A DNA stretch of 24,419 nt from IMG/VR virus record IMGVR_UViG_3300025326_000758; one strand, given 5' to 3'. The position numbers were made by a program, and so were the translations under genes. The stretch comes from a virus. Below the pieces are notes generated by a model. That model worked only from the letters and a program-made list of their open reading frames with translations, ran no database searches and had not been told where the DNA came from. How positions within the stretch are numbered: the stretch's first letter is position 1; each line of letters opens with the position of its first letter. Shown here in pieces: positions 2,678 through 18,683 of the stretch.

Positions 2678-2976
2678 TGCCCCTCGATTGGAAGGACATG
2701 CTTTTCTCTGAACAGGCCGACGCAATCCTCGATCTGTTCGAGTTGAATCCATCCGAGCGAGAAAGCGTCCAGTCAGAGTGGTCCGAGGAGCTGTTTGAAG
2801 TCGATAAGGTTGTGTTTCACGGAAGTGAGCGACACATCCTCGACGGTCGCAACGATGCGTTGCTAGCCCTCCAGACGCTCTGCGAAAAGCGAGTCCAGGA
2901 ACGCGGCGAGATCCTCGATAGGCGGGCGGAGATGCGCAAAAGGATGATCGATGGCAATTCAGACAGCCTCAGCTAG
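2677..2976 (+). CDS. Hypothetical protein (99 aa)
   Basis: TGATG coupling with the scaffold stop; fills the whole scaffold-capsid gap and overlaps the capsid start by 26 nt. Confidence 0.55.
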   Translation: MPLDWKDMLFSEQADAILDLFELNPSERESVQSEWSEELFEVDKVVFHGSERHILDGRNDALLALQTLCEKRVQERGEILDRRAEMRKRMIDGNSDSLS

Positions 2977-4180
2977 CGGCGGTACCGCTCGCGCGCTGTC
3001 GAACTCGATCCGAACCCAGTACGTCGAGGAGTATCTCGACGCAGCGATGACGGAGCGCGTGTACGATCAGATCGCGCAACCGTTTCCCGACAACTCGGAG
3101 ATGATCCGCGGTTCCTCGATCCAGGTCGAGTTCCTGTCCGATATGGAACCCGGCACGACTGCGATCTCGGAAACCGCGGATGTTGTTCCGCAGGCCCTTC
3201 GGGATGCAACCGCCTCGCTGACCCCCACCTCGCGTGGTGAAGTCCTCCAAGCCTCAGAGTTACTTTTGATCCAGGCGTTCACCAACTACGGAGCCGCAAG
3301 GATTCGTAAGATTGGCAAGAATGCGATGGAGTCAATTGATCTCTTGGCCCAAGCTGCGGCCTGCCAGGGTGTTCACTTGGAAGCCGCAGTTGCGAGAGCT
3401 TCACTAGACGCGGGCACCACAAGCCACAACGCGGATGATGCAGTATTCGAGAAGGCGTGGATCAGATTTCTGAGCAACAAGGTTCCAGACTTCAATGCAG
3501 TAATGAACATTGGAGCCAGGACCTACGTTGCGATCACCCACCCCGCGGTGTACTCGGACATCATCCGTACTGGAAACACCCAGTCGATCATGCAGTACCA
3601 GAATGCCCAGATCCTGTTCAATCACGAAATGGGCGCTCTGTCTGCATTCCGACTGGTTGTTTCGCCGTGGGCCAAGGTGTTCTACGGGGCGGGGGCCGAT
3701 CAGGGAACCGATGTCGTCGCAAGCTCGCTGAAAGCCAACTCCAATGCTCTGGCAAAGACCGTTACCCTCTCCGCCTCCACTCACCTCGATTCTGGGCTGG
3801 GTGCCTGGTGGACTGTGGGAACGGAAGAGACCGCGAATACCTTCTACCCGAAGAACGAGCGAGTGAAGTGGGTCTCCAATACCACCTCTATCGTGACGTT
3901 TGTGGGTGAGGGTCCGAACGGTGGCTTCCGCTTCGATCACACCACCGCAGACGTGGTGCGGAACGCGGATAGCGCGTACACCATCGTCTTTGGTGGGCCG
4001 GAGTCCTTGGCGAAGGCGTACTCACCGGATGTGGGCGAGTTCGGTATGCTTGTTGGTCCTCGACGGCACGGTTCGTTGGATCAGTTCGACTCAATCGGGT
4101 GGAAGTTCTATGGTGGGTACGGCATCCTGTCGGATAACCGTATTCTCCGGGCCGAAGTGTCTGTAAGGTCGGAGGCATAA
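2951..4180 (+). CDS. Major capsid protein, N4-gp56 family (HK97 fold) with an inserted beta-rich domain
   Basis: N-arm SNSIRTQYVEEYL, E-loop GSSIQVEFLSDMEPGTTAISE, YVAITHPAVYSDI, EMGALSAFRLVVSP, C-terminal GSLDQFDSIGWKFYGGYGIL..NRI; 409 aa. Confidence 0.85.
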   Translation: MAIQTASASGGTARALSNSIRTQYVEEYLDAAMTERVYDQIAQPFPDNSEMIRGSSIQVEFLSDMEPGTTAISETADVVPQALRDATASLTPTSRGEVLQASELLLIQAFTNYGAARIRKIGKNAMESIDLLAQAAACQGVHLEAAVARASLDAGTTSHNADDAVFEKAWIRFLSNKVPDFNAVMNIGARTYVAITHPAVYSDIIRTGNTQSIMQYQNAQILFNHEMGALSAFRLVVSPWAKVFYGAGADQGTDVVASSLKANSNALAKTVTLSASTHLDSGLGAWWTVGTEETANTFYPKNERVKWVSNTTSIVTFVGEGPNGGFRFDHTTADVVRNADSAYTIVFGGPESLAKAYSPDVGEFGMLVGPRRHGSLDQFDSIGWKFYGGYGILSDNRILRAEVSVRSEA

Positions 4181-4182
4181 CC

Positions 4183-4428
4183 ATGACCGCAACGAGGGAA
4201 GCATCTCCGTACGATGGTCTGGCAGCCTCCTTGGTCAAGGGTCGTTTCTTGGATTTGGGTACAGCGGTGACTACCGCGCCAGGATCAGCAGCCGCGATGC
4301 AGAACGGCTATCTGTTTCTGGCATGGACTGGCACGCATCCGATGATCGGCGTATGCTGGTCTTCGGCACTGGCCCAAGTGAAGTACATACCCTTTACGAC
4401 CAAGACGCTGGGCCGCAAGACCGCGTAG
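4183..4428 (+). CDS. Small protein directly after the capsid gene (possible decoration protein)
   Basis: 81 aa, beta-rich; RBS GGAGG inside the capsid 3' end; position only. Confidence 0.5.
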   Translation: MTATREASPYDGLAASLVKGRFLDLGTAVTTAPGSAAAMQNGYLFLAWTGTHPMIGVCWSSALAQVKYIPFTTKTLGRKTA

Positions 4429-4442
4429 TTACAATCGAATAG

Positions 4443-4484
4443 CCTGTCTGGGGACTCCCCCTCCTACGGGGGGTCCCCAGCAGG
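4443..4484 (+). promoter_or_regulatory. GC-rich stem-loop (terminator-like but no U-tract); loop is anti-Shine-Dalgarno
   Basis: CCTG/CAGG + CTGGGGAC/GTCCCCAG + CCCCC/GGGGG (17 bp, two single-nt bulges), loop TCCTAC 4462-4467; sits in the largest intergenic gap of the window (4429-4504). Confidence 0.6.
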
Positions 4485-4504
4485 ACCAACCTGTAGGAGG
4501 GGTT

Positions 4505-5254
4505 GTGCGGGTCTTCGTTGCGGGTGTTTCCTCGGAACAGCAGTACGTCCGCTCACTGGACTCCATCTTTAGGGGCCTCATAGTAGAAGACGGCGATCAG
4601 CTTGGATACCTTATGGGGAGTCCAGGCTGGATGGCCCGCATAACCCTCTGCGACCAGTTCCTTGAACAGAAGCAGTTCGATGCAATCTTCCAAGTTGACA
4701 TGGACATGCTCCATCCCGATGATGCACTGACCCGCCTCAGAAGCCATGACAAGGACATCGTGACGGGACACTACTTCCGTCGCAAGACAGACCCCATGAT
4801 GTCCGTTATTCAGGTGAAGAATGGGAACCGATGGCTGCCGATGCAGGAGATCCCGACCGAAGGACTGCATGAGGTTGCTTGTACCGGAATGGGCTGTCTT
4901 CTGATAAAGCGGAAGGTCATCGAGGACGTCCTTCATATTCCTGGGATCATCCACCCCTTCATGGCAGGCACCATCCCTTTACTGCACCCGACTAAGATAT
5001 ACGGGCAGGATGTTCGTTTCTTGTACTACGCCCAAATGTTAGGATACAAGCTATGGTTGGATGCTGAGGTCGAGGCGGCTCACGGTTGTACATTCTGGAT
5101 GACCAAGTATCTATATGACATCCTGAGACCCCATCAGGATCAAGAGTGGAAAGAGGAAATGAGGAAGGCCGAATGGGAAACCGAAAGATCCACCGAGCAA
5201 GAGCGGTTGAGTTGGAAGGACTACGCGGCAGAATTCAGGACACCGGCGAACTGA
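4505..5254 (+). CDS. Soluble GT-A fold glycosyltransferase (GT2-like, phage type)
   Basis: ARITLCDQFL (ARN.lv..fl-like), FQVDMDM DxD motif, DIVTGHYFRR, GMGCLLIKRKV, GQDVRF (gED..F-like), GYKLWLD..V...H; GTG start with AGGAGG RBS; no TM or signal segment. Confidence 0.78.
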   Translation: MRVFVAGVSSEQQYVRSLDSIFRGLIVEDGDQLGYLMGSPGWMARITLCDQFLEQKQFDAIFQVDMDMLHPDDALTRLRSHDKDIVTGHYFRRKTDPMMSVIQVKNGNRWLPMQEIPTEGLHEVACTGMGCLLIKRKVIEDVLHIPGIIHPFMAGTIPLLHPTKIYGQDVRFLYYAQMLGYKLWLDAEVEAAHGCTFWMTKYLYDILRPHQDQEWKEEMRKAEWETERSTEQERLSWKDYAAEFRTPAN

Positions 5255-5787
5255 TCCAGATTGATAGGGCCGAACTCCAAAAAGCCGTCCATGACGGACA
5301 GATTCATGAGAACGTCGAATGGGCAAACACCCCGGAACTTGATTCGCCGTCAACCAACCGATCCTCCCCCGCGGGTTATCTTCCCAAGCAGAAACCCTTG
5401 ATGTACCGCCTCGATTATCACGAGATGGCTAGACAGCGTGCCGCGAGCGAGCTTGATCTTCACCAGATCGAGACGGTCCCCAAGGAACTGAGGGACTACA
5501 TCGAACTTCTGGGGAGGATCAAGGAGTGCGATGACTGGCTAAAGGTCCAGGATGAGCATGGGGATTGGGGAACCCTTGTGGTGGGAAAAGAAGGTCGAGA
5601 GGCCAAGATGCCGACCCTCGGTTCGAGAGCGGATGTGGAGGCACACATCAAGAACCGCCACCTGAGCATGGGGTTTCTGGATGAGGAGACCGTGAAAGGG
5701 GAACGCAAGAAGGTCTACAGGGGAATCGCACAGGCTCATTCCGACGCTGTGGATAGAGAGAATGCCGAGCAAGAAAGAGAAGCTTAA
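5173..5787 (+). CDS. Hypothetical protein (~204 aa, coiled-coil N-terminus)
   Basis: Long open frame; ATG 5173 preceded by GAGGAAGG (alternative GTG at 5146); overlaps the GT 3' end by 82 nt. Confidence 0.6.
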   Translation: MGNRKIHRARAVELEGLRGRIQDTGELIQIDRAELQKAVHDGQIHENVEWANTPELDSPSTNRSSPAGYLPKQKPLMYRLDYHEMARQRAASELDLHQIETVPKELRDYIELLGRIKECDDWLKVQDEHGDWGTLVVGKEGREAKMPTLGSRADVEAHIKNRHLSMGFLDEETVKGERKKVYRGIAQAHSDAVDRENAEQEREA

Positions 5788-6334
5788 CTTCATCAAGCAC
5801 TTCATGATGATTAATCAGGACCGGGAAGGGACCGACCTCTCGGGAAACGACTTGTCTGGTGCCTGCATGGTGGGATCGAATCTTAGAAGCGCGATCTGTG
5901 TGGGAACGAACTTCACTGGTTGCGATCTGAGGAAGGTGGACTTCTCCAGCGCAAACCTCAAGTTGGCTAACTTCACCGACGCTGATTTGAGCGGAGCGGA
6001 TATGTCCATGACCTATGCAAAAGCGGCACTCTTCCTTAGGGCGAGGATGTGGAATACCATCGTGAGACATGCGATCTGGAAGAACGCCCTCCTGATTGAC
6101 GCCGATTGCGCGGGGATGGATGTTGTTGGGACTCTGCTCATGGGGGCCAGATGGGACGGGACGAGAACCCTTGATATGAGGAACACCGACAGGGCCATCT
6201 ATCAATGGTGGATGTCTCCTTGGGGAGGCCCTCCGAGTTACGACCCGATTCCAGGCTGGACGAAGCTGGATGAGTCGCTCTTGGGAGGGATATCTCTCCA
6301 AGAGAATTCGGGAAGTTGGCAATCGGCTAGGTAA
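5762..6334 (+). CDS. Pentapeptide-repeat protein (paralogue 1)
   Basis: Tandem A(D/N)LXX-type pentads: TDLSG NDLSG ACMVG SNLRS AICVG TNFTG CDLRK VDFSS ANLKL ANFTD ADLSG ADMSM; non-repeat Trp/Pro-rich C-terminal tail. Confidence 0.92.
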   Translation: MPSKKEKLNFIKHFMMINQDREGTDLSGNDLSGACMVGSNLRSAICVGTNFTGCDLRKVDFSSANLKLANFTDADLSGADMSMTYAKAALFLRARMWNTIVRHAIWKNALLIDADCAGMDVVGTLLMGARWDGTRTLDMRNTDRAIYQWWMSPWGGPPSYDPIPGWTKLDESLLGGISLQENSGSWQSAR

Positions 6335-6356
6335 CGCCGAATCGGAAAGGGATTGA

Positions 6357-6677
6357 ATGAACGAGCAACGGATTGTACGTGTGCAAAGGTACGGCTTGCT
6401 GACCGAGATGTATGCTCTAGCGATAGGTCGCAGGACGGAGAATGGTCTTGAGATCGCCAGATTGAACTATGAGCCAGTAGATGAAATGAAAGACCCATTG
6501 CCAACAACCTATCTGAATCCTACTGAGGCACAAGTGCTCATCGACAGTTTGTGGGATGCCGGTATTCGACCTACGGCTGGACATGGAAGTGCTGGTGCAT
6601 TTTCGGCAGTTCAGCACCACCTGGAGGACATGCGCAGGATTTCGTTCAAGCAGTTGGATATGGAGAAAGGCCAATGA
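6357..6677 (+). CDS. Hypothetical phage protein (106 aa)
   Basis: RBS AAAGGG; motif AQVLIDSLWDAGIRP...GSAG...HLEDMR resembles an uncharacterised phage family as I recall it (unverified). Confidence 0.65.
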   Translation: MNEQRIVRVQRYGLLTEMYALAIGRRTENGLEIARLNYEPVDEMKDPLPTTYLNPTEAQVLIDSLWDAGIRPTAGHGSAGAFSAVQHHLEDMRRISFKQLDMEKGQ

Positions 6678-6862
6678 GAGTCACTGTGGTTCAGAATGGC
6701 GAGACAATCACCTATGAATGCTCCGATATGAGAACCGGCGAGAGAAGCATCCAGATCATGCAGCGGATGAGAGCAAAGAGCGACCTTGATCCCGTAGAGA
6801 GGGACCGCTGCATCGCGGTCTTCTACGGGACGTTCAGGGCGGATATTGAATGGGATGAGTGA
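6674..6862 (+). CDS. Hypothetical protein (62 aa)
   Basis: ATGA overlap with the upstream stop (6674-6677) and GGAGAAAGG RBS; the track ORF from 6551 is over-extended. Confidence 0.55.
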   Translation: MRVTVVQNGETITYECSDMRTGERSIQIMQRMRAKSDLDPVERDRCIAVFYGTFRADIEWDE

Positions 6863-7427
6863 AGACATTCTTTGGCACCGGCTCCGGTATTTCATGAGTC
6901 CCCAGTGGGACGTTTACCTCTCATTGCGGGACCATTTAAGGGGCCAACCCCAGGTTTTGGAAGTCGGCTTCGGAACCGCCGCAGGATCAATGCTCTATGC
7001 CGATAGGGTTGGGCACCTCACTGGAATTGAGATCAATCGAGATGCGGTTGAGTTTGCGAAAGCGATGTATCCGTTGGAGAATGTGGACTGGATACATGCA
7101 GACATTCTCGACTTCGCTTCTCCTACGAAGTTCAGCGCAATCCTGGCAATTGAGGTCCTAGAGCACATCCCAGACTGGCTTGGCGCGGTTCAGAACATTA
7201 GGGATTTGTTAGTCGATCCAGGCGGCGAGTTCATTATGAGTGCGAGAAATGCAAACGCCGATCTTCGGAGAGCGAAGTCACAGCACGAACGAGAGTTGAT
7301 TGCCGAGGATATTGTATCGGCCCTAGAGGAGTTTTTCCCCAATGTCACAATCTACGACTACACCCTCGCCAGAATTCAAGACCGAGACACCAGAGTCACT
7401 CCAATACTCGCCGTCTGCCGGACGTAG
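6855..7427 (+). CDS. Class I SAM-dependent methyltransferase
   Basis: Motif I VLEVGFGTAAG, motif II GIEIN, WIHADIL, FSAILAIEVLEHIPD, GGEFIMS-PN-like; ATG 6855 overlaps the upstream stop. Confidence 0.88.
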   Translation: MSEDILWHRLRYFMSPQWDVYLSLRDHLRGQPQVLEVGFGTAAGSMLYADRVGHLTGIEINRDAVEFAKAMYPLENVDWIHADILDFASPTKFSAILAIEVLEHIPDWLGAVQNIRDLLVDPGGEFIMSARNANADLRRAKSQHERELIAEDIVSALEEFFPNVTIYDYTLARIQDRDTRVTPILAVCRT

Positions 7428-8112
7428 CGTCCTCGGTATCACGATGGCCCGCGGGGGCTCCGTTGGTGTCCCGCGGAAGAACCTCCGCATGGTTGCTGGG
7501 AAAGAACTCATCAGGTGGACCATTGAGGAGGCCAGGAAGTGCTCTCTATTGACAAGGTACGTCGTTTCTACGGATGACCTGGAGATCAGGAAGGTCGCTG
7601 AGCAGTACGGGGCTGAACTGGAGTTCATGGAACCCTACTCCGATGGGACGAATCCTCTCATCGAGAGGCTCCAGTACGTCGTGAAAGGATTGGAGGGGAG
7701 GGGGGAGAAGTATGACCTTATTGCCGACATCCGTTGCACTAACCCCTTAAAGACCGCAGGCGATATTGATGGGATGATCGCTATGCTCTTGGACACTGGG
7801 GCGGACGTGGTTTGTGGGGTCACTAGACTAGAAGACCACCATCCCTCCAGGATCAAGATGATGCTTCCTGATAAGAGGCTGGTAGATGTTTGGCCTGAAC
7901 CCAAGAGTGGGCTAAGGCAGGATCTAACCCCATCCGTTTACATTCGGAACGGAAGTGTCTATGTTGTGAGGACGGAAGCACTCTTAAGAGGGGTCCACTT
8001 CTCTGGGGGGGACATTCGAGGTTACGAGATGCCCCCAGAACGCAACTTGAACATAGACGACGAGATGGATCTCAAAATCGCGGAGGTGTTCCTTGCTTCT
8101 AGAAATCTTTAA
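7342..8112 (+). CDS. neuA: Acylneuraminate/nonulosonate cytidylyltransferase (NeuA/CMAS family)
   Basis: GITMARGGSVGVPRKN nucleotide-binding loop, VVSTDD, RCTNPLKT (QPTSPLR-like), RQDL...YIRNGSVY, NIDDEMD. Family-level call; start uncertain. Confidence 0.9.
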   Translation: MSQSTTTPSPEFKTETPESLQYSPSAGRSVLGITMARGGSVGVPRKNLRMVAGKELIRWTIEEARKCSLLTRYVVSTDDLEIRKVAEQYGAELEFMEPYSDGTNPLIERLQYVVKGLEGRGEKYDLIADIRCTNPLKTAGDIDGMIAMLLDTGADVVCGVTRLEDHHPSRIKMMLPDKRLVDVWPEPKSGLRQDLTPSVYIRNGSVYVVRTEALLRGVHFSGGDIRGYEMPPERNLNIDDEMDLKIAEVFLASRNL

Positions 8113-8311
8113 GTGGTTTCTAACCGCGTGCATCATTGTCGGAACTCTTCTCCTAACTCGCAAGAACAAATGGGGTTGGCTCGTGTCAATTGTGGGTTCT
8201 ATTGGTTGGCTTTGGTACATGCTGTCCATTAGGGAATATGCGTTGGCCTTTAATGCCGTTGCTATGCTTATCATTAGGTTAGATGGTCTGCGCCGATGGT
8301 TCGGCTTATGA
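8093..8311 (+). CDS. Small membrane protein, half-size PnuC-like (3 hydrophobic helices)
   Basis: TTG start with GGAGGTG RBS; 72 aa; pattern W..T...IVG..L...KNKWGWLV...G...W......Y......A...I...G..RW resembles one PnuC three-helix repeat. Confidence 0.55.
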   Translation: MLLEIFKWFLTACIIVGTLLLTRKNKWGWLVSIVGSIGWLWYMLSIREYALAFNAVAMLIIRLDGLRRWFGL

Positions 8312-8955
8312 TTATCTGCGCCGAGATCGGGTCGCTGCATAAAGGCAACCAGCATCTAGCCTACGAGATGATCCGAAGGTCCGCAGAGGCTGGGGCGGAC
8401 ATCTGCAAGTTCCAGTTAGGATGGCCCGCAGACGATCAACTAAGACATGTTGACTCCTTCGCTGGTTTCCTGAAGGAGTCCTGTGAGCATTTCGGGATTG
8501 AGTTCCTGGCCTCCATCTGGTCGCTGGAAGGATTAACAGTCGCCCAGATCCTGAGAATGAACCGCTACAAGATCAGCAACCAGATTGCTCTATCTGGGGA
8601 ACCGCTCTTCGAGCACATCATCGCAGATGGCAAAGAGACCCTCGTCTCCGCCCCTCCAGGGGGAAAGAAGTACAAGAACGTCCGCTGGATTTACACCGTC
8701 TCGCAGTATCCTACCTACCCCAAATACCTGCATCTTCCAAGGACATTCGGAGAGGACGAGAAATACTACGGCTATTCAAGTCACACACACGGGATCGGGG
8801 ATGCACTCATAGCTATTTCTAGGGGGGCGGAGTACATCGAGAAGCACTGTACTCTGGACAGAGAAATGGTAACGAGGGACGCTTCCTTTGCCATCACCTT
8901 CGAGGAACTCGGAGAACTCGTGAGACTAGGGAGAGAGATCGAGAGGCTGAGATGA
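8308..8955 (+). CDS. neuB: N-acetylneuraminate/nonulosonate synthase family (NeuB/SpsE), lacking the C-terminal SAF domain
   Basis: IICAEIGSLHKG, AGADICKFQ, FLASIWS, YKI, SQYPT, GYSSHTHG, GAEYIEKHCTLDR..RDASFA; ATGA-coupled start at 8308; 215 aa. Family-level call. Confidence 0.9.
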   Translation: MIICAEIGSLHKGNQHLAYEMIRRSAEAGADICKFQLGWPADDQLRHVDSFAGFLKESCEHFGIEFLASIWSLEGLTVAQILRMNRYKISNQIALSGEPLFEHIIADGKETLVSAPPGGKKYKNVRWIYTVSQYPTYPKYLHLPRTFGEDEKYYGYSSHTHGIGDALIAISRGAEYIEKHCTLDREMVTRDASFAITFEELGELVRLGREIERLR

Positions 8956-10043
8956 AACACGTGCTAATCCGCGTGTTCTGGAGGTTTTGCACCGAGGTAT
9001 GGGGGATATTTATGCGAGCATACCGTTGGGACACAAGACCAGCAGATGCCATTGGCTATCGTCAATGGGCCGAACGCAAGCTGTCCCGGTTTGCACGAGA
9101 CTTTATCTTCACCGAAAACAGAAACCGGCCAGCTCTAGACGGCCTTTCGTTGATTCCCAGAGTAGCGGTGGACGTTTCTGAAGTGGATATTCGATACTCC
9201 GTCTTTGGGCAAAGCCTTGCGTCTCCAATCGGATTGTCTCCTGCTGGGGCGCAGCTTTGGCTGCATCCACTTGGAGAAAGAGCTACATCCGCAGGCCTCA
9301 ATGGACACGTCGGGATGTTTGGGACAATGGCAACGCAACAACTTGAACGCATCGCTGAGGCCGCAACGGGCCCTCTATGGTTTCAGTTGTATGTACAGCA
9401 CGACTTCCCGTTTACCTTGCACCTGATTGATCGTGCTCTAACGGCTGGGTTTTCTGCCCTTTGTATTACTCTCGATACGCCAGTGGCTTCCATACGACCA
9501 GGATGGGGGAAATACGCAATTCCTGCCTGGGCCGTGGCGCCGAATCTCAGAGATGCACCCATACCGCCCCTTGCTTCGGGCATTGGTCCTCGAATATCCC
9601 CAGCGGTATCTTGGAAAACGATTGAGGCGCTACGCAAGAGATACCAAGAAGTCCCCTTGGTACTGAAGGGCATTCTTCATCCTGATGATGCACGAATGGC
9701 TGAGGAAACAGGAGCAAGTGCAGTTCTCGTATCAAATCACGGCGGAAGGCAATTGTTCGGTTCGGTATCTCCCGTCACAATGTTTCCAGCAATTCGGGCC
9801 GCTACTAGCATCCCCCTGTACGTAGACGGTGGGATACAGAGCGGGATTGATGTTTTGAAGGTGCTGGCTCTCGGCGCAGATATGACGTTCGTGGGTAGCT
9901 CCTACCTTTGCGCATTGGCCCACTCCGGCACGCAAGGCGTTGCACATATCTTGCGCTTGCTGGATACCGAACTGATACGTGCGATGCGTTTATGTGGCGT
10001 GACTAAACTATCTGATATAAACCGCTCGCTGCTCGGAGGTTAG
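8952..10043 (+). CDS. FMN-dependent alpha-hydroxy-acid oxidase/dehydrogenase family protein
   Basis: LIPRVAVDVS, SPIGLSPAG, LWFQLY, ITLDTP..SIR, VPLVLKGILHPDDA, VSNHGGRQL, VDGGIQSGIDVLKVLALGA, ELIRAMRLCG. Confidence 0.9.
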   Translation: MKHVLIRVFWRFCTEVWGIFMRAYRWDTRPADAIGYRQWAERKLSRFARDFIFTENRNRPALDGLSLIPRVAVDVSEVDIRYSVFGQSLASPIGLSPAGAQLWLHPLGERATSAGLNGHVGMFGTMATQQLERIAEAATGPLWFQLYVQHDFPFTLHLIDRALTAGFSALCITLDTPVASIRPGWGKYAIPAWAVAPNLRDAPIPPLASGIGPRISPAVSWKTIEALRKRYQEVPLVLKGILHPDDARMAEETGASAVLVSNHGGRQLFGSVSPVTMFPAIRAATSIPLYVDGGIQSGIDVLKVLALGADMTFVGSSYLCALAHSGTQGVAHILRLLDTELIRAMRLCGVTKLSDINRSLLGG

Positions 10044-10046
10044 ACG

Positions 10047-10802
10047 ATGGTCATTGACCCGCTTAAACCGTTCGGAGAAGCAGAGTGGGAGGATGCCGGA
10101 AGACCGGCGGCGATAGCTACGCCCTCCAGAGGGACAAACCATATTGATTTGCCGTTTTTTGAACGGATGGGCGTGCAGGTGTTTTCGTTGTTTGATGATC
10201 CCGCGGGCCTGGAGACAATCCGCGCGGCTGCCGAATATACCTTCTTCGCGATCCTCTCCTGTCTTAGAAAAGGGGCGGTCAACGCCGAGGAGAGACAGAA
10301 GCCGAGAAGAGAGCTATACGGAAAGACTGTAGGGCTGGTTGGCTTGGGAAGGATCGGGAGGAATCTGAGGAATTGGTGCTCTGTGTTTGGGGCGCACGTT
10401 CTCTTCTACGACCCCTACGTGAAAGGGTATTCTAGCCCTCTGGTGGTGATGTTCAGGGCTTGCGACATCCTTGTAGTCTGCTGTTCTCTGACCAAAGAAA
10501 CTACGGGGATGATCGACAAGAACCTCTTGGACCTCTGTAGGGAGGATGCGATCATCGTGAACACCGCGAGAGGGGAGATCGTGGTGGAAAGGGATATGCT
10601 AGACTTCCTCTCTGAGAGAAAGGATGTGACCTACTTCGCAGATGTGTGGGAGAGAGAGCTGGACGGATACCCCAATCCGTTCTATGGACTTCCTAATACG
10701 ATAACGAGTAACCATGAGGCGGGGAACTGTGTAGAGTCGAACGAGAAGGCCCACGCGATAGCCGAACGATTGCTAAGTCGTGCTATTATGGGAACTGGAT
10801 GA
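10047..10802 (+). CDS. D-isomer-specific 2-hydroxyacid dehydrogenase (NAD-binding), short N-terminus
   Basis: TPSRGTNHID, AAEYTF, GKTVGLVGLGRIG Rossmann motif, FYDPY, NTARGEIV, ADVWERE, TSNHEAG; GGAGG RBS. Confidence 0.87.
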   Translation: MVIDPLKPFGEAEWEDAGRPAAIATPSRGTNHIDLPFFERMGVQVFSLFDDPAGLETIRAAAEYTFFAILSCLRKGAVNAEERQKPRRELYGKTVGLVGLGRIGRNLRNWCSVFGAHVLFYDPYVKGYSSPLVVMFRACDILVVCCSLTKETTGMIDKNLLDLCREDAIIVNTARGEIVVERDMLDFLSERKDVTYFADVWERELDGYPNPFYGLPNTITSNHEAGNCVESNEKAHAIAERLLSRAIMGTG

Positions 10803-11128
10803 GCGACGACAACTCCTATACGCAACCCAAGAAGACCTCCACCTCCCACGGCAAGGTTTGGGAAGTCCTGAAAGCCTCCAAGAGGAACTTTCAAGGCATC
10901 ATCGGGCAAGGGCAGGATATGCGCTTTGGCCCCAACGATGCTTTTTCCACCCGCGATCCCAAGAAAGCCAAAGAAATCTCCGACAAGTACGGATATGCCC
11001 CTGGAGGAAGTAGAGACGTGATCGTGGTTGAGAGAGACGAATACGCCGCATCCTCCAGAAAGAACGTCTGGTCAGTCCCCGAACTCCCCTGGAAAAAGGA
11101 TGGACGAGGAACGTCCAATGAAGACTGA
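10799..11128 (+). CDS. Hypothetical phage protein (109 aa)
   Basis: ATGA coupling with the dehydrogenase stop; continuous ORF. Confidence 0.65.
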   Translation: MSDDNSYTQPKKTSTSHGKVWEVLKASKRNFQGIIGQGQDMRFGPNDAFSTRDPKKAKEISDKYGYAPGGSRDVIVVERDEYAASSRKNVWSVPELPWKKDGRGTSNED

Positions 11129-11624
11129 AGAGATTAGGGGCATCTTGGAAGGATTCGAGAGCGAGCAAGTAGCCCTTCATGGAAGGAAGAGGGCATTACA
11201 GGCCGAGTTGAAGGACATGGAAATACGTTTCCACAGGGGGGCAGGAGCCATCCTTGCTCTACGAAACATCTTGGCAATGTATGGGGAGTACGTCGCATCC
11301 CAATCCACCGAGGAGATCGTGAAGCAACACGACATCCCTATGGCCTCCGATGAAGCGGAAGCCCTCCGTATAAGGACGTTAGGCCCTGGAGAGACCACTG
11401 AGAAACAACTGGCTCAACTCAGGGAATCCGTCTACGAAAGACAGGCGATGGACTGGGTTGGCGTCCTGGATAGGAGAGACCATGAGGATGCTGGATCTGG
11501 CCCTGGAGTCGGGGCTGGTGGGAGTCCAACTGGAGAGAGCGGACCTGCGGGGGAGGAATCTATCAGGGGCGAACCTGACGAACGCCAACCTGAGGATGGC
11601 CGATCTGACGGACGCGGACCTTAG
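11118..11624 (+). CDS. Hypothetical coiled-coil protein (168 aa) with acidic low-complexity tail
   Basis: ATG 11118 after GAGGA; heptad-like N-terminus; last 143 nt overlap the next gene. Confidence 0.6.
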   Translation: MKTEEIRGILEGFESEQVALHGRKRALQAELKDMEIRFHRGAGAILALRNILAMYGEYVASQSTEEIVKQHDIPMASDEAEALRIRTLGPGETTEKQLAQLRESVYERQAMDWVGVLDRRDHEDAGSGPGVGAGGSPTGESGPAGEESIRGEPDERQPEDGRSDGRGP

Positions 11625-12042
11625 AGGTATTACCGCTGTTCATACAGATTTCTCTGGAGCCAAACTATTACGAGCGGACCTGGAAGGGGCCAATCTGGTC
11701 GCGGCGGACTTCACTGGAGCATATCTGAGAGCGGCGAACTTCTCTTATGCAAAGATGTGGACAACGATGCTGCGGAGAGTTTCAGCAAAGAACGCAATCT
11801 TCTTCCAAGCCGATATGACCTACGTGGATTTCAATGGTGGTGAGTTTCTAGGGTCGCGGTTTAATGGTGCTATCCTAGATGGGGCGAGGAACGTAGATCG
11901 AGCGATCTTCTACTGGTGGCTCCCTTCGGATAAGGGGAAGCCGATATACGAAGCCAGGCCAGGATATGTCAGGAGGGAACGGAGTGCGATGGGAGGGATT
12001 TCTCTTCCAGAGAACGCAGGAAGAAAGACCTATGACGGTTGA
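11482..12042 (+). CDS. Pentapeptide-repeat protein (paralogue 2)
   Basis: ADLRG RNLSG ANLTN ANLRM ADLTD ADLRG ... TDFSG AKLLR ADLEG ANLVA ADFTG AYLRA ANFSY; ATG 11482 with TAGGAG RBS. Confidence 0.92.
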   Translation: MRMLDLALESGLVGVQLERADLRGRNLSGANLTNANLRMADLTDADLRGITAVHTDFSGAKLLRADLEGANLVAADFTGAYLRAANFSYAKMWTTMLRRVSAKNAIFFQADMTYVDFNGGEFLGSRFNGAILDGARNVDRAIFYWWLPSDKGKPIYEARPGYVRRERSAMGGISLPENAGRKTYDG

Positions 12043-12199
12043 GGAAGAACTGGAAGAGTTGTGGAAGCAGTATAGAGAGATCTCCCAACAGATTGACGCG
12101 CTCCGCGAACAGAAGAGGGCAGTTACTGCTATGATTGCAGACAAGGAGGAGGTGATCGAAGCAGGCAAAAGAGCAGGGTGGGGACAGGTCATTGGGTGA
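12032..12199 (+). CDS. Small coiled-coil hypothetical protein (55 aa)
   Basis: ATG 12032 after AGGAAGAAAG; EEELEELWKQYREISQQIDALREQK heptads. Confidence 0.55.
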   Translation: MTVEEELEELWKQYREISQQIDALREQKRAVTAMIADKEEVIEAGKRAGWGQVIG

Positions 12200-12482
12200 G
12201 ATTCTGTTTCGGAACATCCAGTCCATGCGGGTAGTCCCCGATGGGACAGATGTTCTTCTGCTGAAGAACGGAGTCCTGATGGCCGCAATCCCTTGGAGGC
12301 AAGCGGAGGAACTGTCTAAGGCAATCTGGAGCGTCGCGAGGTTATGCGACAGATTGGACAACATTGAGCAGATCGCTGCAGATGCAACGATCATGAAGAA
12401 CGCTGGAGTATCCCGAAGATTCACCGATGCGTTTGTGGGAATTCCCACAGTGAGGAGACACGATGGCAAACCTACTCTATGA
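12192..12482 (+). CDS. Hypothetical phage protein (96 aa)
   Basis: TTG start overlapping the upstream stop; fills the gap to the structural genes. Confidence 0.55.
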   Translation: MGEILFRNIQSMRVVPDGTDVLLLKNGVLMAAIPWRQAEELSKAIWSVARLCDRLDNIEQIAADATIMKNAGVSRRFTDAFVGIPTVRRHDGKPTL

Positions 12483-12870
12483 TGCTGGACGAGAAGCGTT
12501 TCTGGATGGGAACTTGGATTGGGCCGCCGATACCATTAAGGTAACATTGCTGGACACGTCTGGCTATGTCTACTCATCGGCCCACGACTTCTACAATGAC
12601 ATCACCGTCGCGGGAAGAACAGCGGAATCGGGTGCGTTCGTTGGAAAGACCTCCACCGATGGGACGGCGGATGCTTCGGATGTCACGTTGTCGGCTGTCT
12701 CGGGAAGCGTGAGCGAGAACCTCATCATCTGGGAGGACGATGCTTCCGCTTCGGACTCAGATAGATTGATCGCCAGGATCGACACCGCTACCGGTCTGGC
12801 TGTCACCCCGAACGGTGGCGACATCACGATCACCTGGGACTCGGGCACCGACAAAATCTTCACACTGTAG
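12463..12870 (+). CDS. Virion structural protein (minor-tail-type, 135 aa)
   Basis: GAGGAG RBS; MANLLYDAGREAFLDG..DW..DTIKV.L, G..DA.DVT, TPNGGDITITWD resembles small minor-tail proteins of actinophage-like genomes as I recall them. Confidence 0.65.
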   Translation: MANLLYDAGREAFLDGNLDWAADTIKVTLLDTSGYVYSSAHDFYNDITVAGRTAESGAFVGKTSTDGTADASDVTLSAVSGSVSENLIIWEDDASASDSDRLIARIDTATGLAVTPNGGDITITWDSGTDKIFTL

Positions 12871-12873
12871 TGA

Positions 12874-15800
12874 ATGGCCCATCCTGCCAAGGAAGCCCGT
12901 GATCGCGTAATCGCGAGTTTTCCCGACGCGGTAGTTGTAGAGCGTCGGCGAAACTCGATCAAGCACGCAATCCCCTCGATCCCCAATAAGTTCATTCTGG
13001 ATCTCGGAATCGGCCCGATGCACTTTGGGCCTTCCGAAGATCAGGAAATCAACACCGCTTGGCAACCTGGAATCGCTCCTTGGGATTTCCAGATGACCCA
13101 GGCGGGCTTCAGTGCCTTCGCCCTCTCCAACTTCTCCTCCGGGCAGATCGTCAAGTACGTCCACCCCGGAAGCGGGGAGTCAATCGCCTTCCAGCCCCAG
13201 CAACTCCAATACACAAATGACCTAGATCAGATTCAGGCTATCGCCAATCCGCAATCTGTGGGCGCGGTGGTTCAGGACGAGGATGTCCTGTTCTGGCAGG
13301 GAGCTTTCGGGCCGGGATTTGATATTCGCTGGCAGGCGCAGACTGCCCGTTTGGACAAACGCTTGGTCGTGGATCAGGCCTCCAGATGGCCGACCCCCAC
13401 CGCGCAGATCATCGCGGGCGGCAATCCGGTCGCTCGGTTGCAGTTCATCTTCCAGGTTTCAACCGGCATCGACATCTTCGTCAACGGCGTTCTGTGGACC
13501 CGCCAGCCGAACAGCACAAGGGATACGCAGGCCTATGTGGAGTTCCGGTTGCAGGGGACGGGCGAAGTCCTGTGGAGCTTCAACCTGCCACGATCCAACG
13601 CTTCGCCAGTCGAGGATCAGGACCCGGATGAGTTACTGGGGACCTTCAGGCTGCGCAGGACCGGGCCTAACCTGTTTGTAGAGCACCGAATCCCCATTGC
13701 TTGGCTTCAGGCCGCGGACTATCCCATTGAGATCGACGTGACGATTGACGAGGTGGTGGGGGCGAGCGCAGATGATGCAAGCCAAACTACAGCCGACGTA
13801 GTATCAATTCTCGCCACCAGCATCACCGTGGACAACACGCAAGAGCACGCGGGTTTCCGATGGACCACTGTTGGGGTTCCCGTTGCGGCCACAATCAATT
13901 CCGCCTGGATGAGCATTTTCATAGTTGGTACTACCACGGACGAGCCGCAGCACCAGCTGCGTGGACAACTCGTGGCAGACGCAGCGGAATTCACTACGGG
14001 ATCTAATAATATAGACGCAAGATCGCGTACAACTGCCACGGTCAACTGGGAAGATACGGATTTAGGATCAGGAGCAGATGAGGAATGGCAATGGGGGGCA
14101 CCTAATGGAAGCCCGACGTCTGGTGCCGACATCAAGACCATTATTCAGGAGATTGTAGACCAAGGTGGATGGGCACAAAACAATGCGATGGTGCTCATCT
14201 TTGAACAGCATACCCTGGATTCGGCTCGTGACTTAGCTCCAAATTTCTATGATGCTAGTACTAGCTTGGCCGCCAAGCTCCACATCGAATACACCTCGTC
14301 TGGCCCGCAGACGATCACATGCACCGGTATCGCTTCAACTGAGGCCTTTGGCACAGCACAACTCAATCTTCAGGTACTTCCCTCTGCGATAAGCAGCACC
14401 GAGGCTTTCGGAACTTCCCTCTTCATACTCTACCTTCTGCCCACTGGGATTGCATCCTCGGAATCTTTCGGCACCGCGGTTCTGAGCGTGGGTGCTGTAG
14501 ATGTTGCACCATCGGGCATCGCAACATCTGAGAGCTTTGGCACAGCTACTCTCACGCTATATCTACTACCCAGTGCTATCGCCTCTGCTGAGGCGTTTGG
14601 CACAGCACTGTTTGTCCTCTATGTAGTTCCCAGTGGGATAGCTTCTGGAGAATCATTTGGCACAACGACAGTCACTCCGGGTGCAGTGACTGTCGGTCCC
14701 ACAGGGGTAGCATCAGCAGAAACGTTCGGAACTGCGGCTCTCGCGCTGTATTTGGTTCCATCGGGAATTGCATCATCAGAATCGTTCGGAACCGCACAGC
14801 TTAATCTGGTCCTGTTCCCAAGCGGGATCGCCTCTGCCGAGTCCTTTGGGACTGCGGCACTGGTTCTCTACATACTTCCCAGTGGCATCGCATCTGCTGA
14901 ATCCTTCGGTACAGCCACAGTAACAGTCGGGGCACTGGTCCTGTTCCCCGATGGCATCGCGACTTCAGAAGCCTTCGGAACAACAACTCTCACGCCTGGA
15001 GCAGTTACCCTCAGTCCAACCGGGATTGCTTCGGCTGAGGCATTTGGCACCTCCACGCTCTCCCTATACCTGCTGCCATCAAGTATCACCTCAGGTGAAT
15101 CATTCGGAACGGCTCAGCTCAATCTTGTCCTCTTAGTAAGTGGTATTGCCAGCGCAGAGGCCTTTGGAACCGCGCAACTCAACCTGACGATTTCGGCTTC
15201 CGGCATCGCCTCTTCCGAGGCATTTGGCAACGCGACGGTATCCGCTGGACTTCTCCTCTTGCCGGATGCCATCGGCTCCTCTGAGTCCTTTGGCACGACA
15301 ACACTCGTTCCTGGGGCGGTTGACATCTCTCCGACTGGGATAGCCAGCACAGAGAGTTTCGGGACCGCGACCCTTGGACTGTATGCACTTCCTGATGGGA
15401 TTACAACGACCGAACTGTTCGGAACAGCCCTGCTGGGTCTGTATCTGCTCCCCACGGCTATCAGCACCGAGGAACTATTCGGAACAGCAGATGTATCCAC
15501 AACTGGCGCACAGACCATTGAACCCTCCAGCCTCCTAAGTGAGGAGGTCTTTGGTACTGCGCTACTTGAGGTTGAGGTTCTCAGAGTCGGAGCTAGACCA
15601 CAGATATTCCCTGTTGGGCCTCCTGTTGTGGTGGTGGATCGGGCTTTCCCAGAGGAGATCCGACAAAGGGCTATTGACCAAGAAGCTAAACGACTAAGAC
15701 AGGAAATAGTTCAACGCGAACAATTGGTGAAGGAGCGCATCGACTCAATACGTAGTCTCTTAGCAGACGCCAGGGAAGACACCGAGGACGCTAACCGAAA

Positions 15801-15966
15801 ACGAAACGAGGCGAATGCGGAACTCTTGAAACTGGAGGAGGAAAGAGGTCAAATAGCCTTGGATCGCAGTTCAGTCTACCGAATGCAGAACAAACGCAGG
15901 CTTGAGAGAGCCAGAGAACAGAAAAAGAGTATAGAATTGAACCGTAGGAAGAAGAGGAGGAAGTGA
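12874..15966 (+). CDS. Large fibre/adhesin-like protein: beta-rich N-domain, DNRLRE/CBM96-like domain, 20 tandem repeats, C-terminal coiled coil with basic tail
   Basis: YPIEIDVT linker; HAGFRW...VP..ATINSA, IIQEIVDQGGW..NN, AKLHIEY; repeats xGIASxExFGT; terminal EEIRQR...RRKKRRK. Confidence 0.65.
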   Translation: MAHPAKEARDRVIASFPDAVVVERRRNSIKHAIPSIPNKFILDLGIGPMHFGPSEDQEINTAWQPGIAPWDFQMTQAGFSAFALSNFSSGQIVKYVHPGSGESIAFQPQQLQYTNDLDQIQAIANPQSVGAVVQDEDVLFWQGAFGPGFDIRWQAQTARLDKRLVVDQASRWPTPTAQIIAGGNPVARLQFIFQVSTGIDIFVNGVLWTRQPNSTRDTQAYVEFRLQGTGEVLWSFNLPRSNASPVEDQDPDELLGTFRLRRTGPNLFVEHRIPIAWLQAADYPIEIDVTIDEVVGASADDASQTTADVVSILATSITVDNTQEHAGFRWTTVGVPVAATINSAWMSIFIVGTTTDEPQHQLRGQLVADAAEFTTGSNNIDARSRTTATVNWEDTDLGSGADEEWQWGAPNGSPTSGADIKTIIQEIVDQGGWAQNNAMVLIFEQHTLDSARDLAPNFYDASTSLAAKLHIEYTSSGPQTITCTGIASTEAFGTAQLNLQVLPSAISSTEAFGTSLFILYLLPTGIASSESFGTAVLSVGAVDVAPSGIATSESFGTATLTLYLLPSAIASAEAFGTALFVLYVVPSGIASGESFGTTTVTPGAVTVGPTGVASAETFGTAALALYLVPSGIASSESFGTAQLNLVLFPSGIASAESFGTAALVLYILPSGIASAESFGTATVTVGALVLFPDGIATSEAFGTTTLTPGAVTLSPTGIASAEAFGTSTLSLYLLPSSITSGESFGTAQLNLVLLVSGIASAEAFGTAQLNLTISASGIASSEAFGNATVSAGLLLLPDAIGSSESFGTTTLVPGAVDISPTGIASTESFGTATLGLYALPDGITTTELFGTALLGLYLLPTAISTEELFGTADVSTTGAQTIEPSSLLSEEVFGTALLEVEVLRVGARPQIFPVGPPVVVVDRAFPEEIRQRAIDQEAKRLRQEIVQREQLVKERIDSIRSLLADAREDTEDANRKRNEANAELLKLEEERGQIALDRSSVYRMQNKRRLERAREQKKSIELNRRKKRRK
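14323..15575 (+). repeat. Coding tandem repeat, 20 units of 20-24 aa (60-72 nt), consensus P-S-G-I-A-S-x-E-(A/S)-F-G-T-A
   Basis: Counted 20 ExFG units from TGIASTEAFG to SSLLSEEVFG; degenerate at the DNA level. Confidence 0.95.
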
Positions 15967-16268
15967 TGGCTGACTACCGCTTATACGACCGCGTGAAATC
16001 CGGGGAAATCTCTGGCTCGGCTACGGCGAAGCAGCTCCCCGACGTAAGCTGCCAAACCGTCATGTTCGTTGCCGCCAACTCAAACGTGGGAGATGTGTAC
16101 ATAGGAGGTAGTGGCGTTACCGCGCCGAACGGGACACAGGACGCTACCACTGGGTTCGAGTTGAAGCCAAGTGCCCAGAGCCCCTGGCTTACAGTACGCA
16201 ACCTTGATCGGTTCTACATCATTTGTGACAACGCCGGAGACGATCTGCTCTATCTGGCGCTGGAATGA
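15966..16268 (+). CDS. Small beta-sandwich structural protein (100 aa)
   Basis: TGATG coupling; Gly/Thr-rich, V.F.A..SNVGDVYIGGS...GFEL.P...W pattern; context. Confidence 0.6.
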   Translation: MADYRLYDRVKSGEISGSATAKQLPDVSCQTVMFVAANSNVGDVYIGGSGVTAPNGTQDATTGFELKPSAQSPWLTVRNLDRFYIICDNAGDDLLYLALE

Positions 16269-16280
16269 AAGGACCGAATA

Positions 16281-17003
16281 ATGCAGAAGAAACTGCTAAT
16301 AACCGGGTTCGTCTTGTTCGCACTATTTGCAGCCAGCTTGCCCTTCGTAGCCTATGCCGCAACGTTCTGGGCTGACTACTTTGAGGACGGCAATCTGAAT
16401 GAGTACACATCTCCAGACGGTACCAATATCGGAGTCGTGATCGAAGATACGGTAGTCTATGCGGGCAATTACTCCGTCAAGGCCGATAACGATTTGGGCG
16501 AGGATGCCTGGGGAAGTTCAGTATTGCGTAGATTTGTTGGCTACTCCAACGCGATGGGCGCTTCAATACGCTGGCGCATGGAGGCTGATTTCGAGGGAAG
16601 GCTCGGACCCGCGGTATTCCAATGCCGGTGGCGTAAGTCACTACAAGGCTACTATGTCCATCAATTCCCTCTTGAAGTGGTCGTGCGCTATATCAATAAT
16701 GTCCCGAAAGCATTCCTCTACGTGAAGGACTTTAGTGGCGATCTCACCTATGTAGCAGGTCCGATCACCTTGACGGAGGAAACATGGTATCAAGCCATCG
16801 TCAAGTCCAGCGGCGGTGGCTATGAGTACATTCACTTCGGAGGGACCACGTATTACCCAACTGTACAAGGTCACGCTACGGCGGAATCTTGCAATTGGAA
16901 CGGCCAGAAAACGGAGATAGTCTTCGGCGTAGATGCACTGGACGATGTTGAGTATTCGGGTCCGCAGTACGAATACTTCGACAACTTCCTGGGCGCAGAC
17001 TGA
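16281..17003 (+). CDS. Signal-peptide-bearing beta-sandwich (ConA/LamG-like) protein
   Basis: AAAGGA RBS; MQKK + hydrophobic core + AYA/A cleavage site; mature part DYFEDG..., GNYSVKA, TWYQAIV, YFDNF. Confidence 0.6.
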   Translation: MQKKLLITGFVLFALFAASLPFVAYAATFWADYFEDGNLNEYTSPDGTNIGVVIEDTVVYAGNYSVKADNDLGEDAWGSSVLRRFVGYSNAMGASIRWRMEADFEGRLGPAVFQCRWRKSLQGYYVHQFPLEVVVRYINNVPKAFLYVKDFSGDLTYVAGPITLTEETWYQAIVKSSGGGYEYIHFGGTTYYPTVQGHATAESCNWNGQKTEIVFGVDALDDVEYSGPQYEYFDNFLGAD

Positions 17004-17869: not shown

Positions 17870-18366
17870 TGCGCGCAGTGCGGGCGTATCACGATGCAGA
17901 GCAGATCATCGCCGGGGCCACTTGGACACAGGTAGCGTTGAATTCCGAGCTTTCAGATACGAGCAACATGCACAGCACGACGGTCAACAATGAGCGGATC
18001 ACCATTGACGAGGCCGCCAGTTTCGCGTTTGCATTCCATGCCACCTGGACTTTCGAGAATACTTCGGGGGTCCGAGGCATTCGGATCAAGAAGACGGGAA
18101 CCGTCATTGTTTCTTCACTATCGAACGACCTCTATCCGTCAGCTTATCACTGGACGCACTCCATGTCATTTTGCGACCGCTTTGCTGTCGGTGATTATCT
18201 GACTGTGGAGGTTTATCAGGAAAACGCCGATCTAACCGGGGGACTACGCTCAGTGGGATGGAATACTCCGCACATGGCCGGAGGTATATTCGTTGAGGTT
18301 ACGCCGGTGACGGGGGACGCCGTAGTTGCGGCGACTGTTGGTTCCGATATGGCTATACTTGACTAG
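17869..18366 (+). CDS. Single C1q/TNF-like domain protein
   Basis: TAATG coupling; Q.I....WT.V.LNSE..D...MH....ITI ... F..GDYL.VEVYQ, alignable by eye to the two upstream domains. Confidence 0.65.
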   Translation: MRAVRAYHDAEQIIAGATWTQVALNSELSDTSNMHSTTVNNERITIDEAASFAFAFHATWTFENTSGVRGIRIKKTGTVIVSSLSNDLYPSAYHWTHSMSFCDRFAVGDYLTVEVYQENADLTGGLRSVGWNTPHMAGGIFVEVTPVTGDAVVAATVGSDMAILD

Positions 18367-18373
18367 GAGGACA

Positions 18374-18682: not shown

Positions 18683-18683
18683 C

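Follow-up and report, generated by a model that had tools for sequence, protein, structure and literature searches.

The described gene sets nearest to the one reported here are the nonulosonic-acid (NulO) and Kdo-type pathways and the glycosylation cassettes of phages. In the bacterial NeuB/NeuA, PseI/PseF and LegI/LegF systems, a NeuB-family TIM barrel with a metal-binding His pair and a CTP_transf_3 cytidine monophosphate (CMP)-sugar synthetase are encoded side by side. The Bacillus subtilis sps spore-crust locus encodes a GT-A glycosyltransferase (SpsA), a NeuB-like protein (SpsE) and a cytidylyltransferase (SpsF). Mycobacteriophages carry glycosyltransferase (GT) and methyltransferase genes near their structural genes, and their capsid or tail proteins are thought to be glycosylated; we know of no such system with a NeuB/NeuA-type acid-sugar pathway. 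We analyzed the entire 24,419-bp metagenomic contig of IMG/VR record IMGVR_UViG_3300025326_000758 (the window), which is part of a phage genome. At positions 4505–10802 it carries a cassette whose genes, judging from the families they encode, probably make and activate a sialic-acid-like sugar. On balance, we lean towards reading the cassette as a glycosylation module that an uncultured podovirus-like lineage took from bacteria and expresses with its virion genes, the acid sugar most likely being placed on virion proteins.

The cassette likewise pairs a NeuB-family barrel with a CTP_transf_3 enzyme. It differs from the bacterial pathways in that its NeuB lacks the SAF domain and both enzymes score far below the equivalog models (90 against 400 and 99 against 206 bits). 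It also contains no NeuC, PseB–G or LegB–G precursor enzyme, and it has an obligatory D-2-hydroxyacid dehydrogenase family protein (2HADH), fused to the CMP-synthetase in bacteria, that to our knowledge no described ulosonic-acid pathway has. With the sps locus it has in common a soluble glycosyltransferase (GT2/GT-A) alongside a CTP_transf_3 enzyme and a NeuB-family synthase, and comparisons with the cassette proteins gave SpsA and SpsE among their structural and sequence hits; the sps locus differs in that SpsE has a SAF domain, in its aminotransferase and acetyltransferase steps, in lacking a 2HADH and in not being phage-borne. Mycobacteriophage virion glycosylation, unlike the cassette, uses only nucleoside diphosphate (NDP)-sugars of the host. 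Virion glycosylation in these phages is mentioned in PMC11256854. The nearest precedent for a redox partner tied to a CMP-synthetase is ElaABC of Acinetobacter baumannii KL49, in which a CTP-transferase acts alongside NAD(P)-dependent dehydrogenases, for which oxidation and reduction of CMP-legionaminic acid have been proposed; ElaA is a Gfo/Idh/MocA enzyme rather than a 2HADH, and Ela acts on a diamino sugar from a full Leg pathway (PMC13656337). Maf enzymes (MAF_flag10/GT42-like) are soluble and cytoplasmic, and transfer CMP-ulosonic acids to Ser/Thr of a structural protein before assembly: they O-glycosylate flagellin with CMP-nonulosonic acids and also with CMP-Kdo (bioRxiv 10.1101/2020.06.03.131540; PMC11339370). 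Some cassettes related to ours have one to three Maf-like genes. Those phage versions lack the flanking domains of the 632-aa Maf, the window itself has none, and the acceptor here would be a virion protein rather than flagellin.

An earlier note, made from the letters of the window, had placed six enzymes in one coupled late run, and all six lie at 4505–10802:

4505–5254, + strand: soluble GT-A glycosyltransferase with a DXD motif, short form (PHROG, homologues, AlphaFold2 model, Foldseek)
6846–7427, + strand: class I S-adenosylmethionine (SAM)-dependent methyltransferase (Methyltransf_25/11/23)
7342–8112, + strand: NeuA-type CMP-sugar-acid synthetase (CTP_transf_3, 63.6 bits; cut-off 22.6)
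8296–8955, + strand: SAF-less NeuB-family phosphoenolpyruvate (PEP)-condensing synthase, TIM barrel only, 219 aa (Pfam, alignment, tree)
8952–10043, + strand: flavin mononucleotide (FMN)-dependent L-2-hydroxyacid oxidase/dehydrogenase (FMN_dh, 293.8 bits)
10047–10802, + strand: NAD-dependent 2HADH (2-Hacid_dh_C, 122 bits)

The run is single and tightly coupled: neighbouring genes overlap or lie no more than 22 nt apart, ATGA overlaps occurring at 6674, 8952 and 10799, and no promoter or terminator signal within it rose above the shuffled background. The Pfam matches for NeuB, CTP_transf_3 and the methyltransferase (Methyltransf_25/11) that the note had proposed looking for were all obtained. 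We observed the gene content of the cassette, the folds and catalytic motifs of its products, its synteny within a phage clade, its bacterial counterpart and its insertion site, as described below.

The long open reading frames (ORFs) of the window all lie on the + strand, and the window is the late region of a tailed phage. ORF 2951–4180 is the major head protein by PHROG match and is 45% identical to the major capsid protein (MCP) of MW202608 (locus L161 in our numbering of related loci), a complete circular 41.8-kb podovirus from Manatee Spring that has no cassette. The portal-like and scaffold-like ORFs, the MCP and the tail proteins at 18917–20176 and 20173–22809 all have homologues in MW202608, in the same order. 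There the capsid gene is followed by a decoration protein, a small protein and then the two tail proteins, and the small protein is homologous to an ORF at the downstream edge of the cassette:

10799–11128, + strand: conserved structural gene, outside the cassette and forming its downstream border (profile hidden Markov model (HMM) of cluster c6, E 1.8e-12 on L161; precedes the tail genes in MW202608)

Because MW202608 has this gene order without a cassette, 4505–10802 is an insertion that separates the head genes from the first conserved structural gene downstream. The PHROG match of the head protein and the structural genes held in common with MW202608 establish the phage context of the cassette as genuine. 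Megablast of the whole window and tblastn of NeuB against phage records gave no match, as did a single-protein scan of IMG/VR. A tblastn search with the 2HADH against deposited phages returned unrelated enzymes alone, at ~25% identity, from which it appears that no cultured phage carries the module; by the megablast and tblastn searches, the module is not carried by any deposited phage genome.

The synthase matches NeuB PF03102 with 85.3 bits (gathering cut-off 22.1), and its family profile aligns with PseI (8h2c) across residues 2–215, the whole barrel. Residues E10, K38, Q40, K92, S161, H163, E182, H184 and D195 are invariant or nearly so among 22 family members, and all PEP- and metal-binding residues are retained. 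No C-terminal SAF domain is present in the protein, since the ORF stops at residue 219 with its ATGA overlap into the next gene. All 24 of the 24 close relatives are likewise 211–246 aa long and match PF03102 only; canonical matches of ~350 aa mostly also have PF08666. Length and domain content thus assign the window NeuB to a distinct family of 211–246-aa proteins. Its profile recovered 4 viral, at least 477 metagenomic and 76 genomic loci.

The cytidylyltransferase shows ARGGSxGxPxKN and NIDDxxD motifs. Its best matches in the PDB are CMP-Neu5Ac synthetases (E 3e-21 to 6e-14), with KdsB at E 3e-4; against the PseF model TIGR03584 it scores 98.9 bits, below the cut-off of 205.7. The methyltransferase adjoins the cytidylyltransferase in relatives too, and matches the Pse-associated methylase model TIGR03587 weakly, below cut-off.

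The 2HADH retains GxGxxG (as GLGRIG), the Arg of NTARG, the Glu of the WERE segment and the His of NHEAG in an alignment with its relatives, and its best PDB matches are a glycerate dehydrogenase-related protein, McyI and PGDH. The best PDB matches of the FMN oxidase are L-lactate oxidase, glycolate oxidase and hydroxymandelate oxidase. Close homologues of the FMN oxidase were found only in L005 (a fragment identical to the window), in L001 and in one 46-kb contig, a distribution that marks it as an accessory add-on in a few relatives, outside the core. Thus both of the 2-hydroxyacid redox enzymes described earlier are present, but only the 2HADH is a core component. Together, the FMN oxidase and the neighbouring 2HADH could invert a 2-hydroxy acid from L to D, but the oxidase is too rare an addition for this to account for what the 2HADH does in the core.

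The same combination of enzymes occurs in bacteria. In Halobacteriovorax, SAR86, Burkholderiales, Magnetococcales, Pelagibacteraceae and Scalindua, homologues of the cytidylyltransferase and the 2HADH are adjacent and lie near a SAF-less NeuB. At each of the four loci with ORFs called (Halobacteriovorax L119, SAR86 L090, Pelagibacter L136 and Burkholderiales L105), a single ORF of ~575–700 aa covers both enzymes, and Pfam confirmed both domains in the Halobacteriovorax protein. Two ESM Atlas clusters (51 and 63 members, with generic names only) represent the same fusion. After the fusion, Halobacteriovorax and SAR86 have a Pfam-confirmed 220-aa GT2 and the SAF-less NeuB, with genes for an ABC exporter and for epimerases/dehydratases alongside; Halobacteriovorax also has a uridine diphosphate (UDP)-glucose dehydrogenase there; at the GT2 position in Burkholderiales L105 there is an unscanned ORF of ~230 aa. 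Since bacteria carry the fusion, a short GT2 and a SAF-less NeuB together in polysaccharide loci, the NeuB, cytidylyltransferase and 2HADH are a functional unit, and the fusion itself argues that the 2HADH step is integral. In Vibrio sinus (L122 7995–10338) and Pelagibacter (L136 8001–10283), the SAF-less NeuB is directly followed by formyltransferase-like and polysaccharide-deacetylase-like genes, with a UDP-glucose dehydrogenase, an epimerase/decarboxylase-like gene and a DegT aminotransferase nearby in Vibrio sinus. By analogy, this gene set recalls the Arn (Ara4N) enzymes, a hint that the precursor in those bacteria may be an amino-pentose.

Two structural-genomics entries resemble components of the bacterial module: 6ncs, a 290-aa ‘sialic acid synthetase’, resembles the bacterial SAF-less NeuB, and 6p61, a 228-aa glycosyltransferase, resembles the bacterial short GT2 (E 7e-50). 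We found no functional study of 6ncs, 6p61 or the module in the literature, and no description there of SAF-less NeuB enzymes or of the NeuB-cytidylyltransferase-2HADH trio; searches on phage NulO pathways likewise turned up nothing about the module. An Omnitrophota metagenome-assembled genome contig of 43.9 kb (L087 4702–9703) has cytidylyltransferase and 2HADH matches in two successive ORFs, followed by a SAF-less NeuB and by a third 2HADH, an arrangement that looks like a duplicated version of the module.

Among phages, the module is present in at least nine related loci (L001, L002, L006, L009, L010, L015, L021, L026, L031) and is retained across divergent relatives (MCP 41–52% identity, NeuB 41–61%). 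Their common core consists of the GT, a pentapeptide-repeat protein, the methyltransferase, the cytidylyltransferase, NeuB and the 2HADH, in full synteny in L001, L002, L010, L026 and L031. The cassette lies 3' of the capsid gene in L001, L002, L010, L021 and L026, and the L031 sequence opens with the small capsid-associated ORF next after the MCP; the same tail genes lie 3' of the cassette in L006, L009, L015 and L026. The composite order is MCP, small head protein, GT, pentapeptide-repeat protein(s), the accessory protein c9 (below), methyltransferase, cytidylyltransferase, NeuB, 2HADH, the homologue of ORF 10799–11128 and tail. FkbM-type methyltransferases are added in some relatives. In a tree of 156 NeuBs, all phage-context copies fall in one 32-row clade with 100% local support, nested among bacterial SAF-less NeuBs. 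At the clade's loci with enough flank, the cytidylyltransferase is upstream of NeuB in 13 of 16 and the 2HADH downstream in 15 of 16, so that the genes do co-occur in related phages, and the lack of co-occurrence that the earlier note named as refuting its reading is clearly not seen.

The cassette GT has no Pfam match of its own and matches a PHROG glycosyltransferase (E 4.5e-7). The representative library contains 1669 of its relatives, the remote ones matching Anp1 (GT62) or Glycos_transf_2. An AlphaFold2 model from a 50-sequence alignment reached a predicted local distance difference test score (pLDDT) of 92. Its best Foldseek matches were STIV A197, LH3, COLGALT1, ppGalNAc-T, Mnn9 and SpsA, with probability 1.0 for A197, LH3, COLGALT1, Mnn9 and SpsA; R45, D65-x-D67, D169 and H193 are invariant in the family. 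Judged by this model, the GT is a metal- and NDP-sugar-type GT-A enzyme that most resembles UDP-sugar protein glycosyltransferases. The CMP-sugar transferases that we know to have been described are GT-B-like or DXD-less variants of GT-A, and a DXD-bearing GT-A is unlikely to transfer a CMP-sugar. The earlier identification as a GT-A enzyme therefore holds by fold and DXD motif, but without a Pfam match of its own, and a role in transferring the acid sugar is improbable. A kinship of the phage GT with the bacterial short GT2 was considered and dropped (hhalign probability 0.2%).

The GT of the window is short, and the GTs of relatives carry a C-terminal extension, to which the product of the next ORF is homologous by alignment (HMM of this product on the long GT of L001, E 6.7e-8):

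5146–5787, + strand: GT-accessory protein c9 (start uncertain, candidates 5170 or 5401)

We rejected the idea that the GT and this ORF are one frameshifted gene: c9 is also a separate gene in L001, L002, L006, L010 and L021, and a short GT of 243 aa occurs elsewhere.

Four related loci contain, inside the cassette, proteins with a GNGxS motif: L010 (three copies), L021 (two), L009 and L024. These GNGxSL proteins are 174–265 aa long, with GNGxS invariant. Their profile matched only GT42 sialyltransferases (CstI, CstII) in the PDB, weakly (E 8e-4 to 0.02). A structural model of moderate confidence (pLDDT 73) gave the Magnetospirillum Maf 5MU5 as its best match (probability 1.0, TM 0.56), followed by CstII and the MptE kinase fold. 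On the strength of the model, they resemble Maf/GT42-like transferases and hence the protein-directed Maf family. The exact position of the window's FMN oxidase, between NeuB and the 2HADH, is taken in L010 and L009 by one Maf-like gene.

All of the chemistry below, like the nature of the sugar and of its acceptor, we infer from this gene content. The SAF-less NeuB would condense PEP with a host aldose to a 2-keto-3-deoxy sugar acid (Kdn-, Kdo- or nonulosonate-like), which the NeuA-type enzyme would convert to its CMP ester. The 2HADH would catalyse an obligatory redox reaction, whether of the precursor, of the free acid or of the CMP-sugar, and the methyltransferase would O-methylate the sugar or the glycan. 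The FMN oxidase, as a later addition, might supply or remove a 2-oxo or 2-hydroxy acid. The DXD-containing GT-A enzyme and c9 would glycosylate a protein acceptor from an ordinary NDP-sugar. The acid sugar would be placed in the cytoplasm on virion or virion-associated proteins, in some relatives by the Maf/GT42-like transferases; in the window phage, the transferase for the acid sugar would lie outside the 24-kb contig or be present in unrecognised form. The cassette enzymes are all predicted to be soluble, with no transmembrane segment in the GT, and a Pfam scan and hydrophobicity analysis found no flippase, polymerase, initiating or lipid-linked transferase or exporter in the cassette. Cytoplasmic glycosylation of protein is suggested because the enzymes are soluble and because a flippase, polymerase and initiating transferase are absent. 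A stronger version of the proposal is tentative, with rather less than an even chance of being right: that the SAF-less NeuB, the NeuA-type enzyme and the 2HADH form an undescribed pathway, used across many bacterial phyla and captured by this phage lineage, to a new acidic keto-sugar, and that the phage ‘sialylates’ its own virion proteins in the cytoplasm.

Several observations weigh against the virion-glycosylation reading. In canonical enzymes the SAF domain supplies a substrate-binding Arg to the partner subunit (PMC7591256), and the cassette NeuB has no such Arg-donating domain. It scores 90.2 bits against the NeuB equivalog TIGR03569 (cut-off 399.65) and 63.7 bits against the PseI equivalog TIGR03586 (cut-off 340.25). 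The missing SAF and these scores are why the word nonulosonate describes a supposed product: the ulosonate-donor cassette proposed earlier stands as a coherent make-activate-modify module in a late operon, but with a non-canonical NeuB. The 2HADH is ~45 N-terminal residues shorter than those of L001, L010, L026 and the bacterial fusions (the L006 protein has the same short N-terminus) and is the fastest-evolving cassette protein in comparison with L006 (43% identity; the others 61–68%). Given the 2HADH, the chemistry may not be of the nonulosonate type at all. The window has no recognisable CMP-sugar transferase: the HMM of the relatives' Maf-like proteins found nothing better than E 2, and GNGxS occurs in none of the six frames. 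This agrees with the earlier statement that the window has no recognisable sialyltransferase. Finally, the MCP has no insertion specific to cassette-bearing phages and is colinear with the MCP of the cassette-less MW202608, and an MCP insertion as the glycan acceptor was dropped. The decoration of virion proteins proposed before thus has indirect support, from the soluble enzymes and the Maf/GT42-like genes of L010, L021, L009 and L024, but not from any cassette-specific insertion in the capsid protein.

A serious rival, if an unlikely one, is that host enzymes use the CMP-acid sugar late in infection to remodel a host surface glycan (lipopolysaccharide, capsule or S-layer glycan), for example to keep progeny from adhering to debris or to block superinfection, and that the virion is undecorated. 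In favour of this rival, the bacterial module is found in polysaccharide loci, where ABC exporters, a UDP-glucose dehydrogenase and epimerases are its neighbours, and the window lacks a CMP-sugar transferase of its own. Yet the cassette always lies in the head-tail (late structural) operon, its enzymes are soluble and come without a flippase, polymerase, lipid-linked GT or exporter, and the Maf-like enzymes of relatives belong to a protein-directed family. We favour a virion protein over a host polysaccharide as the target because of the head-tail operon site, the soluble enzymes and the likeness of the GT and of the Maf-like proteins to protein-directed enzymes.

It is quite unlikely, in our judgement, that the NeuB-cytidylyltransferase-2HADH trio makes no sialic-acid-type donor but some other CMP-linked or free 2-oxo or 2-hydroxy acid, such as a short-chain 2-keto-3-deoxy acid formed from glyoxylate, glycolaldehyde or tartronate semialdehyde and reduced by the 2HADH, with the FMN oxidase feeding the pathway. 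The absence of SAF leaves the sugar pocket uncapped, bacteria fuse the 2HADH to the cytidylyltransferase, and an L-2-hydroxyacid oxidase sits between NeuB and the 2HADH here, all of which would suit such a product. However, the cytidylyltransferase resembles CMP-Neu5Ac and PseF enzymes much more closely than it does KdsB or enzymes of other classes, and the GT42/Maf-like transferases of relatives belong to families specific for CMP-ulosonic acids; we also know of no precedent for such a metabolite. That the sugars go onto phage DNA as a base hypermodification, not onto protein or polysaccharide, has hardly any chance of being correct: some phages with hypermodified DNA do have glycosyltransferases and nucleotidyltransferases beside the DNA polymerase gene (PMC12686479), but the genes here lie in a capsid-tail operon rather than a replication module, the window encodes no base-modifying enzyme (hydroxymethylase, kinase or DNA GT family), and the GT model matches protein GTs.

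The remaining features of the cassette and its upstream edge are:

4443–4480, + strand: stable hairpin between the small capsid-associated ORF 4183–4428 and the GT start (RNA fold)
5762–6334, + strand: pentapeptide-repeat protein (Pfam Pentapeptide, 70.8 bits; cluster c2, in all related loci)
6357–6677, + strand: 106-aa ORF, no family matches, singleton in clustering
6674–6862, + strand: small conserved protein of ~62 aa with an ATGA-coupled start (70% identity to the ORF just upstream of the L006 methyltransferase)
8093–8311, + strand: 72-aa membrane ORF resembling the PnuC N-terminus (NMN_transporter E 1.8e-4, 22 bits, below cut-off; hydrophobicity)

The predicted fold of 4425–4515 has an energy of −46 kcal/mol (z −3.4), and none of 200 shuffles was as stable. 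No T-run follows the hairpin on its 3' side; the hairpin might act as an attenuator or as a processing site where the cassette begins. The 72-aa ORF encodes a two-helix protein, is translationally coupled between the cytidylyltransferase and NeuB, and is present only in the window phage and the identical fragment L005; PnuC is a nicotinamide-riboside transporter. Paralogues of the pentapeptide-repeat protein number one to three in every related cassette, and these proteins are candidate acceptors.

Downstream of the cassette, 11028–18920 is a second block of genes that is extra relative to MW202608. It encodes a pentapeptide-repeat protein (11458–12042), a PHROG-644 protein (12463–12870), a 1030-aa repeat protein (12874–15966) and several ORFs without a family match. 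The 1030-aa protein has ~20 tandem repeats of ~21 aa (PSGIASxExFGTA...) in a region that is 20–36% Ser/Thr, followed by a charged coiled-coil tail; the repeats match mycobacteriophage ‘minor tail proteins’ and a Microcystis phage protein. This Ser/Thr-rich protein is a possible O-glycosylation acceptor. A 240-aa protein of the late operon at 16281–17003, without a family match, has an N-terminal signal-peptide-like hydrophobic segment (MQKKLLITGFVLFALFAASLPFVAYA).

The portal-like ORF has homologues in the C-terminal part of a 2156-aa protein of MW202608 (L161 4440–10910) and in proteins of 894–990 aa in two relatives (L002 18–2990; L026 17–2701); since the ORF is open at the 5' end of the contig, the portal-like protein of the window may be much longer. 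Two further proteins were noticed in related cassettes: a 218-aa protein with a GT8-like DAD motif and no Pfam match (L021 6958–7614) and a fragment that, read by eye, resembles UDP-glucose dehydrogenase (L026 11543–12382).

The cassette is compact and encodes only soluble proteins, and is therefore accessible to heterologous expression. If the trio makes a new CMP-activated acid sugar, it would add one more route beside those to Kdo, Neu, Leg, Pse and Kdn, and the new pathway would explain the spread of the module in SAR11, SAR86, Myxococcota, Elusimicrobiota and others. If the phage decorates its own particle, the masking of surface charge by sialic-acid-like sugars would be a trait of phages as well as of cells, with a bearing on adsorption, stability, grazing or immune recognition, and this would be the first demonstrated case of a phage particle carrying an ulosonic acid that the phage itself makes.

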